Origin: an uncultured Candidatus Saccharibacteria bacterium
Lineage (GTDB): Bacteria > Patescibacteriota > Minisyncoccia > UBA6257 > 2-01-FULL-56-20
Assembly (NCBI GenBank): GCA_964563735.1
Contig: CAZLXS010000003.1
Location: forward strand, 1-32,095
Reading direction: 5' to 3'
DNA length: 32,095 nt
Positions 22,934-24,811 of this stretch are shown here, piece by piece. The notes beneath the pieces are model-generated. The model was not told the origin of the DNA. It saw nothing but the letters and a program-made list of their open reading frames with translations, and did no database searches. Numbering within the stretch: position 1 is the first letter of the stretch; every line of letters starts with the position of its first letter. Position numbers and translations under genes: made by a program.

Positions 22934-23875
22934 TTATCCCCGACCCAGTTCTTCTATAATTTTTTCATAATCGATATCCAACCCATCTGGAATGGGATGA
23001 AGCCAGTCGTCTTCCAATTTTCTTTTTACAAAAATATCTTTTTTTAGAGATCCTGTGCCTCGCGCTTCAGCTAATAAAGAAAAACACGAAAGGTTTTCAC
23101 TCTTACTGTCATCGAGTACCACAAGCTTCCCAGTCTTCCGAATACTAGTTAGGACCGGTTCCCAATTGATGGGAGTCATGTAGTTTATATTAAAGACAGC
23201 TGGTTTCTGACCAGATTTTTCAAGCTCTAATCCCAACTTCCAACCATATGGGAAAGAAAAATTAAAACAGACGATAGTGACGTCATCCCCATCTTTATAC
23301 TGAACAAATTCTAGATCTTTGCCTTCGGTAATTGGCTCTCCTGGATCGACAACCTCCTCCTTGAAAAGTCTCTGACTAAATCCGATGATTCTAAATCCAG
23401 GCTTAGCAAAGTGGGTAGAGATAATTTTTTCGGCATCGTATTTATTGGTAATATTAAAACCAGAAATTCTGGCAATTGAGCAAAAGTCTGCAAAATTATT
23501 AGAACTGGACTGGGGGCCTTGATAGCCCATATCGACGATAATAGGGAGAATAGTAAAAGAACCAGAAGCGTGCTTACTGTTACGAATAATGTTGTAGGTA
23601 TTCACAAGATGATCAATACCTAAGAGTAGAAAATCTAACTGCTTCATAAAAAAAGCGGCCCTGCCTCCACCCAACATAATTCCAAAACCAAAACCGACTA
23701 GAGAGTTTTCGGTATTAGTGGTGTTCACGATCTGACTAGTATTTTTGACTTTGAAGCCCTTAGTAAATCCACTAATGCGGGATCCTGCACTCACATTCTG
23801 ACCAAAAACCGTTAGGTTATCGTGCAAACCCACTTCTTGCTTCAAAACTGAATTGATATGTTCTAAGTACTTCAT
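22934..23875 (-). CDS. TPP-dependent 2-oxoacid dehydrogenase E1 component, beta (transketolase-like Pyr/C-terminal) subunit
   Basis: 313-aa ORF. E1-beta-like N-terminus MKYLEHINSVLKQEVGLHDNLTVFGQNV, then ENSLVGFGFGIMLGG. Its length and position right after an E1-alpha gene fit this call. Confidence 0.7.
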   Translation of the reverse strand: MKYLEHINSVLKQEVGLHDNLTVFGQNVSAGSRISGFTKGFKVKNTSQIVNTTNTENSLVGFGFGIMLGGGRAAFFMKQLDFLLLGIDHLVNTYNIIRNSKHASGSFTILPIIVDMGYQGPQSSSNNFADFCSIARISGFNITNKYDAEKIISTHFAKPGFRIIGFSQRLFKEEVVDPGEPITEGKDLEFVQYKDGDDVTIVCFNFSFPYGWKLGLELEKSGQKPAVFNINYMTPINWEPVLTSIRKTGKLVVLDDSKSENLSCFSLLAEARGTGSLKKDIFVKRKLEDDWLHPIPDGLDIDYEKIIEELGRG

Positions 23876-23887
23876 TTAATTTTTAAT

Positions 23888-24811
23888 TTAGGAAATTTCT
23901 TTTTGGAGCGTTGATAATTCTTCGCGAGCTATTTCCTTTAAGCTGGTTGGATCAAAATTTTTAGTTAAGACGAAAACCGGATCTTCGTCGCTCTCTTTTA
24001 TAACTGGCCAGTCACCTAAAGAAACCTCTGGAGCTGGGCCAGCGTGATAATTAATAAATTCTCCATCTGGAAAATCTTGAGTTTTCATTTTCCAATCTCC
24101 AAGAGTAGAAACTCCAACCTCAACACAAACTGGCAAACTATTTGTTAATCCAAAATTACGGATATCTTTTAGGGCGTCTATATAATAGAGAGGATCATTA
24201 CCAATTAAGTTAACGTAGCGAATATCTAAAGATTCCGAGAGAAGAGAAAGATCAATGGGCGAGCGACGTTGCTCGATATTAGTAGACATAGACCACTGGT
24301 TATTTTCAATAAGAAAGATTACTGGAAGATGCATACTTCGAGCCATTAACATACTTTCGTAAAAAGAACCTTCTTCCATAGAACCATCACCGCCTAAGAC
24401 AATAACTGAATTATTTTTTTGAGATATCTTAAAAGCTTGAGCTAAACCAGTCGCTACTCCAAATTGATTGCCGAGAATACTAGATGCATATGGAATACCT
24501 CTTCTAGGATTTAAAAGATTCATAGAACCAGAATGCCCCTCATTCAAACCAGATAATTCTAAAAGATACTCGTCCAAGATAGGGCGCAATCTTCCTTCTC
24601 GAGCAAGATTGTAGGCAATATTACGGTGGGTTGGTAGTAACCCATCCCCCTCCTCCATTACTGAGCTCACTGCAACAGCAATCGCTTCGTGACCTAAAGC
24701 AAGATGAATAGGAATCTTGAATTTGCCTGTCTTGTACTCTTCGTTGATGAGCATCTGACTCAAACGCAAACGCAAAACTTCTTTAGCGATTTTATTTCGA
24801 TCAAATTCCAT
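23888..24811 (-). CDS. TPP-dependent 2-oxoacid dehydrogenase E1 component, alpha subunit
   Basis: 307-aa ORF. Contains HLALGHEAIAVAV and the TPP-binding motif GGDGSMEEGSFYESMLMARSMHLPVIFLIENNQW (GDG...NN). Confidence 0.8.
   Translation of the reverse strand: MEFDRNKIAKEVLRLRLSQMLINEEYKTGKFKIPIHLALGHEAIAVAVSSVMEEGDGLLPTHRNIAYNLAREGRLRPILDEYLLELSGLNEGHSGSMNLLNPRRGIPYASSILGNQFGVATGLAQAFKISQKNNSVIVLGGDGSMEEGSFYESMLMARSMHLPVIFLIENNQWSMSTNIEQRRSPIDLSLLSESLDIRYVNLIGNDPLYYIDALKDIRNFGLTNSLPVCVEVGVSTLGDWKMKTQDFPDGEFINYHAGPAPEVSLGDWPVIKESDEDPVFVLTKNFDPTSLKEIAREELSTLQKEIS

Follow-up and report, generated by a model that had tools for sequence, protein, structure and literature searches.

Introduction

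Two-carbon branching of sugars has been proposed for several pairs of E1-type, thiamine diphosphate (ThDP)-dependent subunits that have no E2 partner, namely AviB1/AviB2 (avilamycin), Pau11/Pau12, which are the same as Plm8/Plm9 (paulomycin), EvdU5/EvdS3 (everninomicin), and the aldgamycin and kosinostatin pairs (PMC12247030, PMC4425429, PMC4802897, PMC4753412, PMC10338323). A review from 2025 uses the term alpha-KADH2 for these enzymes, counts about 120 such gene clusters and no experimental structure, and lists a single E1-type example tested in vitro; KbDH-alpha/beta, from kibdelomycin, couples pyruvate with sugar-like ketones in vitro (PMC12247030). The review places the E1-type class in actinomycete secondary metabolism, and urges searches in other cell-envelope contexts (PMC12247030). 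Here we describe an E1-alpha/E1-beta pair encoded on the minus strand at 22934-24811 of a 32,095-nucleotide stretch of contig CAZLXS010000003.1, from an uncultured Candidatus Saccharibacteria bacterium. The whole of this stretch is called the window below.

We propose that the pair is a stand-alone, acyloin-forming E1 carboligase of the alpha-KADH2 type, acting on a nucleotide-activated keto-sugar and not on a lipoyl-E2, and put the probability of this at roughly 0.6. The initial annotation of this DNA had suggested the addition of a two-carbon unit to a keto-sugar nucleotide by an AviB1/AviB2-like pair, and on the sequence evidence this is still the best-supported explanation; the precedent was well chosen, a member of that class (KbDH-alpha/beta) having since been validated in vitro (PMC12247030). 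The proposal is made because the subunits are E1 homologues that keep the cofactor residues, have lost a beta-subunit His and the alpha-subunit tail, and have no E2; because the gene order is kept across more than 10 phyla, archaea included, and the block is retained in a strain variant; because a maker of keto-sugars is encoded beside the pair; and because one related locus puts a split transketolase in the equivalent place, with the E1 pairs of antibiotic pathways as precedent.

Comparison with described systems

The resemblance to the alpha-KADH2 systems is one of arrangement: in both, E1-alpha and E1-beta genes without E2 or E3 lie among genes for deoxy- and keto-sugars, and the window pair has a predicted keto-sugar maker alongside. 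The differences are considerable. The window pair lies in a glycosyltransferase-rich surface-glycan locus and not in an antibiotic cluster, and the carriers of its family are uncultivated Patescibacteria, Thaumarchaeota and other phyla rather than actinomycetes. Its context is that of GDP-heptose together with a homologue of the Campylobacter jejuni enzyme Cj1427, whereas theirs is dTDP-2,6-dideoxyhexose or UDP-pentose; it has two dedicated short-chain dehydrogenases/reductases (SDRs), one of which has no catalytic Tyr; and its subunits are shorter (307 and 313 aa, against 325 and 345 for Pau11/Pau12). In the actinomycete systems the product, proposed in general and shown in vitro for KbDH, is a tertiary alcohol carrying a C-acetyl group, which is often then reduced, and the branch ketoreductase of paulomycin, Pau7, belongs to the aldo-keto reductase family (PMC4753412).

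The enzymes YerE and ErwE are similar in chemistry and in destination. With ThDP they turn a 2-oxo acid into an acyl anion equivalent and add this to a 4-keto sugar nucleotide; YerF then reduces the product with NAD(P)H, and the sugar goes to a surface polysaccharide (PMC9306805, PMC12247030). Enzymes of this type serve Gram-negative and mycobacterial lipopolysaccharide, while transketolases and alpha-KADH2 enzymes are used chiefly for specialised natural products (PMC12247030). YerE differs from the window pair in being a single-chain flavoprotein (TPP_enzyme_N/M/C domains, with FAD) of the pyruvate oxidase/acetolactate synthase fold, where the window has a heteromeric E1, and its acceptor is CDP-3,6-dideoxy-4-keto-glucose.

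Split-gene transketolases form a third group, for which a role in hydroxyacetyl branching has been proposed in miharamycin and amipurimycin. All 13 known candidates are from Streptomyces, and none is characterised in vitro. They share with the window pair an arrangement in which an oxidoreductase precedes a ThDP enzyme that is encoded by two genes and proposed to branch a keto-sugar, and one locus described below combines SDRs of the window's types with a split transketolase. They differ in scaffold (transketolase and not E1) and in presumed donor (hydroxypyruvate or a ketose and not pyruvate). A further parallel, with E1-like genes in the O-antigen region of Coxiella, was considered and dropped, a literature search having found nothing.

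The surrounding genes resemble the capsular GDP-heptose pathway of C. jejuni (GmhA/HddA/GmhB/HddC, Cj1427, Cj1430, Cj1428 and the HS:5 C3-dehydratase), and the window encodes predicted homologues of every one of these classes, those of HddA and HddC scoring well below their cut-offs (PMC10680097). A catalogue of 20 C. jejuni heptose enzymes contains no ThDP enzyme, and the word thiamine occurs in it 0 times (PMC10680097). With its two SDRs, the E1 pair would add a further branch to a heptose pathway of the C. jejuni type.

The E1 pair and its putative operon

The pair and the three genes upstream of it are as follows.
22934..23875, minus strand: divergent E1-beta-like subunit, 313 aa, Pyr domain and C-terminal domain (PDB 1um9_B, E 2e-16)
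23888..24811, minus strand: E1-alpha-like ThDP-binding subunit, 307 aa (Pfam E1_dh, 113.6 bits)
24811..25695, minus strand: partner extended SDR, called SDR_24811, 294 aa (Pfam Epimerase, 119.6 bits)
25692..26579, minus strand: second partner extended SDR, called SDR_25692, 295 aa, without the catalytic Tyr (Pfam Epimerase, 129.5 bits)
26581..27516, minus strand: Cj1427-like SDR (PDB 6vo6/6vo8, E 4.8e-112, 377 bits)

The open reading frames (ORFs) for alpha and beta lie where the initial annotation had placed them. Its three SDRs are all extended SDRs, and the one at 26581-27516 can be described more exactly as a close homologue of PDB entry 6vo6. The stop codon of SDR_24811 overlaps the start of E1-alpha by TAATG, as had been noted, and the spacer from E1-alpha to E1-beta is 12 nt.

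The genes from 27516 down to 22934 form a tightly coupled run, and to this extent the proposal of a single operon holds. Its wider form, in which all of the sugar genes are in the one operon, has only partial support, in view of the 126-nt gap at 22808-22933 between E1-beta and the kinase gene that follows. This is the only sizeable gap in the block. Within it lie a small hairpin that resembles a terminator (22902-22888) and the region's best sigma-70-like match (22868-22839, 11 of 12 positions). These sites give a hint of a transcript boundary after E1-beta, and only a hint, because the numbers of promoter and terminator sites equal those expected by chance.

The E1-alpha subunit

Hidden Markov model (HMM) searches, which the initial annotation had suggested, give for alpha the E1_dh match listed above (E 1e-32). 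There is also a weak local match to TPP_enzyme_C in Pfam (26 bits) around the ThDP motif. In the PDB, human pyruvate dehydrogenase (PDH) E1-alpha is matched at E 1e-15. The AlphaFold model has a mean confidence score (pLDDT) of 88.4, and Foldseek superimposes it on the E1-alpha subunits of PDH and of branched-chain 2-oxoacid dehydrogenase (BCKDH) with template modelling (TM) scores of 0.74-0.81.

The full ThDP motif GDGSMEEGSFYESMLMARSMHLPVIFLIENN is present, as the initial annotation had reported. For the comparison of residues, family members were extracted from the fetched loci, and the canonical set consisted of three Chlamydiae loci together with Thermus thermophilus and human fragments. 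Residues G141-D142-G143 and N170-N171, which make up the GDG...ENN motif for ThDP and Mg in its GDG-X(26-28)-NN form, are invariant across the family alignment. So is His256, which in a profile alignment falls on the His of the canonical human GHSMSDP motif. By its predicted fold and its motif, alpha is assigned to the alpha2beta2 E1 superfamily of 2-oxoacid dehydrogenases.

The resemblance to canonical E1 thus extends to the fold, the ThDP/Mg motif, the alpha His, a beta Glu (below) and the order of the genes, alpha and then beta. The family departs from it in several respects. Alpha has an insertion of about 17 residues, at roughly 238-252, directly before His256, the Ser that follows in the canonical motif, and that is phosphorylated there, is absent, and the final 25 or so residues of the canonical C-terminus are missing. 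The other departures are a Ser or Ala in place of a beta-subunit His, and the lack of an adjacent E2.

The E1-beta subunit

In Pfam, beta falls just short of the threshold for Transketolase_C (24.3 bits, where 25.9 are required). It matches T. thermophilus E1-beta (1um9_B) over residues 4-258, and the NCBIfam model for PDH E1-beta at 48 bits. From these matches, beta is judged a true, though divergent, E1-beta homologue.

Glu56, the residue that activates the cofactor, is invariant in 21 of 21 family members. The same 21 have Ser or Ala where the canonical (H/Y)HSQ motif has its His; in the window the residue is Ser123. When mapped onto 1olx_B, Ser123 corresponds to beta'-His146 of human BCKDH and beta-His128 of PDH. 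The position is an Ala in the 1olx mutant chain, and according to the titles of PDB entries 1olu, 1ols and 1olx, His291-alpha and His146-beta' take part in the reductive acylation of lipoyl. The pair of His residues for lipoyl acylation is therefore incomplete in this family, with alpha His256 kept and the beta His replaced. The family appears to retain everything needed for the ThDP-bound carbanion and to have lost one of the two residues for its hand-over to lipoyl-E2, because the alpha motif, the alpha His and the beta Glu are all conserved while the beta His is not.

Is the pair an ordinary E1?

No lipoyl-E2 was found in the window, either with Pfam on the ORFs of at least 150 aa and several shorter ones, or with an E2 HMM in all six frames. 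This bears out half of the earlier statement that neither E2 nor E3 is encoded here. As to the other half, no E3-type flavoprotein family was seen in the Pfam scans, and no probe aimed at E3 was made. An E2 probe set and the E2 HMM likewise found no E2 in 20 non-redundant loci of the family, in the available sequence of up to 10 kb per side, and the same probes found E2 directly downstream of beta in 3 of 3 canonical control loci.

These results bear on the simplest alternative, which is that the pair is the E1 of an ordinary pyruvate, acetoin or branched-chain dehydrogenase that uses an E2 and E3 encoded elsewhere, and merely sits in a glycan locus. Its best Pfam, NCBIfam and PDB matches are indeed to PDH and BCKDH E1, its ThDP motif, beta Glu and alpha His are intact, and the inspection for E2 spans some 10 kb on each side of a locus. 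The matches are distant: canonical E1s are 25-30% identical to the family, and the NCBIfam score is 129 bits against an equivalog cut-off of 394. Moreover, the beta His for lipoyl acylation is lost throughout the family, E2 is found in 0 of 20 loci but adjoins the canonical controls, and the pair keeps company with one particular SDR in bacteria and archaea alike. Many of the carriers are Patescibacteria, which usually have no tricarboxylic acid cycle and no 2-oxoacid dehydrogenase complexes. We consider an ordinary E1 very improbable.

Distribution of the family

Alpha has more than 1500 relatives in the databases. The best 120 are nearly all of about 290-330 aa (one is 276 aa) and 53-97% identical, and come from metagenomes and from metagenome-assembled genomes (MAGs) named as Liptonbacteria, Patescibacteria, Nitrosopumilales, Nitrosotalea and Thermodesulfobacteriota. 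Among species-representative genomes, relatives of alpha occur in MAGs only, the carriers being Paceibacteria, Saccharibacteria, Planctomycetia, Dehalococcoidia, Cytophagaceae, Alphaproteobacteria, Marinimicrobia, Nitrospirae, Omnitrophota and archaea. The 20 non-redundant loci cover more than 10 phyla, Patescibacteria and Thaumarchaeota among them. The nearest relatives are from Patescibacteria/Paceibacteria and unclassified MAGs (71-73% identity), and exact matches were found only in Logan metagenome assemblies; an origin of this DNA in a Leptospira rfb locus, considered at first, is not supported.

For beta, a search of 1.84 billion representatives at 50% identity gave 89 relatives at a limit of E <= 1e-30 and 187 when this was relaxed to E <= 1e-10. 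On these figures the family is of moderate size and well separated from canonical E1-beta. A protein search of the PLSDB plasmids gave no member of the family; its hits were all canonical E1s, none of them more than 34% identical.

Gene neighbourhoods

The window proteins were compared with the 20 non-redundant loci over up to 10 kb on each side. The counts are lower bounds, because several loci are truncated contigs.
SDR_24811-type: 17/20 loci (42-72% identical; upstream of alpha, mostly adjoining it and often overlapping)
HddA-like kinase: 14/20
Cj1427-like SDR: 13/20
SDR_25692-type, without Tyr: 13/20 (mostly immediately upstream of the SDR_24811-type gene)
RmlC-like epimerase: 12/20
GmhA: 11/20
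HddC-like nucleotidyltransferase: 9/20
C-methyltransferase: 9/20
GmhB: 7/20
Aldo-keto reductase: 3/20
Fcl-like SDR: 2/20
UGDH-like (UDP-glucose dehydrogenase-like) enzyme: 1/20
RfbH-like dehydrase: 0/20

A survey of this kind had been recommended in the initial annotation, and all of the related loci examined show the association with sugar genes again. The aldo-keto reductases, which are of the Pau7 family, were counted in favour of the proposed branching role.

Two loci are particularly informative. L027 (Logan SRR31757429) is a strain variant with an identical alpha protein. It keeps the block of Cj1427-like SDR, two SDRs, alpha, beta, kinase and nucleotidyltransferase, and the genes downstream of the nucleotidyltransferase differ from those of the window (RmlC, GT8, SDR, Methyltransf_21 and others). 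This is strain-level mosaicism of the sort typical of surface-glycan loci.

The second is L003, from a Liptonbacteria MAG (L004 is the same region). At 2625-6361 it has an SDR without the Tyr, an SDR_24811-type SDR and a split transketolase (the N part, then the Pyr/C part), in an order that matches the SDR-SDR-E1alpha-E1beta of the window. A second SDR_24811-type gene, with an E1 pair, follows about 2.6 kb downstream at 8990-11926. Judged by gene order and homology, this is a non-orthologous swap, with two ThDP scaffolds occupying the same slot beside the same SDR partners, which would imply that their shared job is to transfer a two-carbon carbanion to a carbonyl acceptor.

Two further loci hold other ThDP-type genes. 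In L001, which also has a full-length E1 pair, a 206-aa E1_dh-like ORF precedes one of 181 aa that weakly resembles E1-beta (17144-18314, beside a GHMP kinase); these may be a miniature split ThDP enzyme. In L030 a distant E1 alpha/beta pair (1610-3426, beta 31% identical) lies among sugar genes of another type, namely an extended SDR, a DegT protein, a CTP_transf_3 cytidylyltransferase, a GFO/IDH/MocA protein and two radical-SAM/SPASM proteins, and may carry out a different ThDP-dependent modification, of a CMP-activated sugar.

The acceptor

The genes of the window that bear on the acceptor are as follows.
2451..3047, minus strand: GmhB-type heptose-1,7-bisphosphate phosphatase (NCBIfam GmhB, 154 bits, cut-off 178)
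16410..17099, minus strand: GmhA-type sedoheptulose-7-phosphate isomerase (NCBIfam phosphoheptose isomerase, 209 bits, cut-off 276; TIGR00441, 177 bits)
17835..19091, minus strand: RfbH/ColD-type 3-dehydrase dependent on pyridoxal phosphate (PLP) (NCBIfam RfbH, 350 bits; His in place of the PLP Lys, SFYASH)
20156..21091, minus strand: Fcl-like SDR (NCBIfam GDP-L-fucose synthase, 263 bits, cut-off 500)
21088..21807, minus strand: HddC-like sugar-1-phosphate nucleotidyl (guanylyl) transferase (NCBIfam HddC, 125 bits, cut-off 300)
21800..22807, minus strand: HddA-like GHMP kinase, heptose-7-phosphate 1-kinase type (NCBIfam HddA, 155 bits, equivalog cut-off 600)
27601..28857, minus strand: TylC3-type sugar C-methyltransferase with zinc-ribbon, methyltransferase and C-terminal domains (Methyltransf_14, 162 bits; Methyltransf_13, 76 bits)
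28935..29474, minus strand: RmlC-like cupin 3,5- (or 3-) epimerase for 4-keto sugar nucleotides (Pfam dTDP_sugar_isom, 159.8 bits)

The HddC-like ORF as listed begins at 21975; a start at about 21807 is likelier, and would overlap the stop of the kinase gene as it does in L027. The GmhB gene is far from the E1 pair, and would complete the heptose-nucleotide pathway.

The closest structural match of the SDR at 26581-27516, PDB 6vo6, is an entry that we take to be the GDP-heptose C4-dehydrogenase Cj1427 of C. jejuni; the depositor's name for the molecule is consistent with this. For the more distant SDRs of about 345 aa in the minimal loci, too, the best match of known structure is 6vo6. The window SDR is presumed to be the maker of the 4-keto acceptor. 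The RmlC-like protein matches the GDP-D-glycero-4-keto-D-lyxo-heptose 3,5-epimerases 8db5, 8dco and 7m14 at about 105 bits. Cj1427 makes GDP-4-keto-heptose (PMC10680097). The HS:5 C3-dehydratase of C. jejuni acts on the same 4-keto-heptose (PMC10680097), and the DegT-family protein of the window (17835..19091) resembles it.

The conserved context would therefore supply a 4-keto sugar nucleotide beside the ThDP enzyme, and the sugar is most probably a heptose. GDP-4-keto-heptose is the likely acceptor, in preference to the 3,6-dideoxy-4-ketohexose favoured earlier, because the partners that are conserved are the Cj1427-like SDR and the GmhA/HddA/GmhB/HddC set, and not gmd/fcl or the 3-dehydrase. 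The 3-dehydratase reported at first is correct as an enzyme type, on its RfbH score and its SFYASH motif. As suppliers of the acceptor, it, the gmd/fcl genes and the UGDH-like enzyme are counter-indicated by their occurrence in 0, 2 and 1 of the 20 loci. The same count of 1 speaks against the more speculative idea of chain extension on an aldehyde from the UGDH-like enzyme.

Other genes may act on the same intermediate. The C-methyltransferase may methylate this or a parallel 4-keto compound at carbon. Two genes that lie outside the conserved cassette can also be given roles: the RfbH-type dehydrase could, in this window, produce the acceptor in a 3-deoxy-4-keto form, and the Fcl-like SDR at 20156-21091 is a candidate C4-reductase, in the manner of Cj1428, for the unbranched heptose.

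The constant company of GmhA/HddA/GmhB/HddC-like genes, with HddA and HddC well below their cut-offs, also suits an enzyme that acts at the level of sugar phosphates, like a transketolase or 1-deoxy-D-xylulose-5-phosphate synthase. Such an enzyme would transfer two carbons from hydroxypyruvate or pyruvate to an aldose phosphate, and the ketose phosphate would then pass through the SIS isomerase, the GHMP kinase, the HAD phosphatase and the nucleotidyltransferase, the result being chain extension. The split transketolase in the equivalent position in L003 would fit this, as would the presence of two such modules and a transaldolase in the window. It is nevertheless unlikely. The closest partners of the pair, and the most constant, belong to the nucleotide-sugar epimerase/dehydratase family of extended SDRs, and one is coupled to it in translation; the adjoining Cj1427-like enzyme oxidises ready-made GDP-heptose; GmhA and GmhB score near the cut-offs for the standard heptose pathway; and the known split-transketolase and E1 sugar systems are proposed to work on keto-sugars, not on sugar phosphates.

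A somewhat stronger alternative, though still a doubtful one, keeps the acyl branch and changes the acceptor, the position or the donor. The acceptor might be a 3-keto sugar made by the coupled SDR, a 3-deoxy-4-keto-heptose from the RfbH-like dehydrase that this window encodes, or a sugar that has already been transferred, and the donor might be other than pyruvate. The alpha-KADH2 enzymes branch at C3 or C4, the avilamycin and paulomycin branches are proposed to be added after glycosyl transfer, and YerE-type relatives take longer keto-acid donors; the intact triad and NAD-type Asp31 of the coupled SDR would suit an oxidase or epimerase, and 7 of the 20 loci, L003 among them, have no Cj1427-like gene. 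On the other side, that gene is present in the remaining 13 and belongs to the same tightly packed run in the window, the 3-dehydrase is found in none of the other 20 loci and is absent from the sequenced flank of L027, and the known alpha-KADH2 enzymes are reported to be specialised for two-carbon branches from pyruvate.

The SDR partners

SDR_24811 has an intact catalytic triad (Ser110/Tyr138/Lys142), an invariant Asp31 of the NAD type at the end of strand beta2, and an unusual glycine motif, TGSESFVA. It would either form the keto group of the acceptor or reduce the carbonyl of the branch. In SDR_25692 the catalytic Tyr is replaced by Phe131, and by Phe, Val or Leu in 13 of 13 members; Lys135 is kept, the glycine motif is the canonical TGGTGFIG, and Arg32 is of the NADP type. 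SDR_25692 is probably not a standard ketoreductase, and probably does not carry out the standard hydride and proton chemistry. By analogy with YerF and Pau7, one of the two may reduce the new branch carbonyl, and the other may bind or isomerise an intermediate.

Proposed pathway

In the pathway that we propose, the donor, the acceptor, the branch position, the order of steps and the SDR roles are all inferred. The Cj1427-like SDR would oxidise C4 to give GDP-4-keto-heptose. Before branching, this may be altered by the RmlC-like epimerase, by the C-methyltransferase and, in the present window, by the 3-dehydrase. Glu56 of beta would activate the ThDP bound by the GDG...NN motif of alpha; the ylide would attack pyruvate, with release of CO2, and the hydroxyethyl-ThDP carbanion would add to the sugar ketone, giving a tertiary alcohol with a C-acetyl branch. 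A dedicated SDR would then reduce the branch carbonyl to a 1-hydroxyethyl group, the better candidate being the NAD-type SDR with the intact triad that is coupled to alpha, although the reduction may fall to a neighbouring aldo-keto reductase in some loci. Finally, the glycosyltransferases of the locus would build the nine-carbon branched heptose into a surface glycan.

Since ThDP chemistry is in principle reversible, and E1 enzymes include the acetoin-cleaving type, the pair might instead cleave a C-C bond in a sugar-derived alpha-hydroxyketone, or simply decarboxylate a sugar-derived 2-oxo acid, so as to shorten or rearrange the sugar. This seems highly unlikely. There is no conserved neighbour to make a sugar 2-oxo acid (the UGDH-like enzyme being in 1 of 20 loci), the known sugar-associated E1 pairs are all builders, and we know of no precedent for the opening of the pyranose ring that a cut beside its 4-ketone would bring about.

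Several points weigh against the carboligase proposal as a whole. The case for it is built from homology, residue conservation, the absence of E2 and synteny, and every locus of the family is metagenome or MAG sequence. The likeness to AviB1, Pau11 and KbDH is one of description, and either kinship or independent recruitment from E1 could account for it. Alpha retains its active-site His, a residue that has been implicated in the acylation of lipoyl as well. For the actinomycete systems, branching is proposed to follow glycosyl transfer and not to take place on the NDP-sugar. A heptose is probable but not certain at every locus, because the HddA- and HddC-like proteins are far below their equivalog cut-offs. 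The seven loci without a Cj1427-like gene, the clearest being L003 with about 10 kb of flank on both sides, may mean that the acceptor differs among loci or that the coupled SDR makes the keto group. Finally, our literature searches, in a library that is incomplete, found no branched heptose and no E1-type branching in surface-glycan loci.

Other features of the locus

Scans of the ORFs with Pfam and NCBIfam show that a large glycan-biosynthesis locus fills the window. The ORFs are almost all on the minus strand, and the GC content is about 0.39. From right to left, the order is gmd, fcl, a GT10-like glycosyltransferase, the RmlC-like epimerase, the TylC3-type C-methyltransferase, the three extended SDRs, E1-alpha, E1-beta, the HddA-like kinase, the HddC-like nucleotidyltransferase, the Fcl-like SDR, a GT8 protein, the RfbH-type 3-dehydrase and GmhA. 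Further glycosyltransferases follow, then an RmlB-like dehydratase, and then a weaker second set of heptose-pathway-like genes, which includes GmhB. The remaining features are:
910-2461: two NTP-transferases (left module)
3017-3631: weak GmhA-like SIS protein (left module)
3639-4367: transaldolase/fructose-6-phosphate aldolase (left module)
6350..7654: UGDH-like nucleotide-sugar dehydrogenase (TIGR03026, 298 bits; catalytic-Cys motif reads SGGTLGRD)
7664-8650: second HddA-like kinase (left module)
10522..11598: RmlB-like 4,6-dehydratase (dTDP-glucose 4,6-dehydratase, 332 bits; gmd, 72 bits)
31545..32095: gmd, cut by the right edge of the window (the ORF list covers only its final 95 codons)

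The gene at 10522-11598 had at first been taken for gmd; its scores make it RmlB-like, and the real gmd is the one at the right edge. The Cys of the UGDH-like enzyme is apparently absent from its motif, as was noted initially, and the enzyme could stop at the aldehyde or be inactive.

The left-end module spans 910-8650, and also has a GFO/IDH/MocA oxidoreductase and a classical SDR. Its composition suggests a second, different activated higher sugar. A 175-aa ORF at 17163-17690 has no Pfam match, and an unannotated gene of equal length lies at the matching place in L027 (10058-10585).

Significance

The initial annotation called the pair the most likely seat of novel chemistry in the window. 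This goes too far, the chemistry being of a known kind: what we have is a known kind of enzyme in a new setting, that of surface glycans and not of actinomycete antibiotics. The new elements, undescribed as far as we could find, are the substrate class with its link to heptose, the dedicated SDR pair, the loss of the beta His throughout the family, and the phylogenetic spread.

ThDP enzymes that accept ketones are rare, and are wanted for making chiral tertiary alcohols. The present family offers a compact and well-conserved set of E1s with a defined probable acceptor, which known enzymes of the C. jejuni type could produce, together with two SDR partners that co-evolve with them. It opens the question of what marks an E1 that accepts ketones, with the missing beta His and the insertion in alpha as examples, and that of whether bacteria of the candidate phyla radiation and Thaumarchaeota bear branched higher-carbon sugars on their surfaces.

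More tentatively, and as a conjecture that we hold with a good deal less confidence than the carboligase assignment itself, the five-gene core of Cj1427-like SDR, NADP-type SDR without Tyr, NAD-type SDR, E1-alpha and E1-beta may be an undescribed and widely exchanged cassette, which makes a 4-C-acetyl or 4-C-(1-hydroxyethyl) heptose that Patescibacteria, ammonia-oxidising archaea and many further uncultivated lineages would carry on their cell surfaces. If so, the SDR without Tyr would have a new non-redox or otherwise unconventional role in handling a tertiary-alcohol intermediate. The product would be a class of nine-carbon branched sugar not yet seen in any glycan, and branching by enzymes of the E1 type, and in some loci of the split-transketolase type, would extend from actinomycete antibiotics to the primary glycans of the cell envelope.

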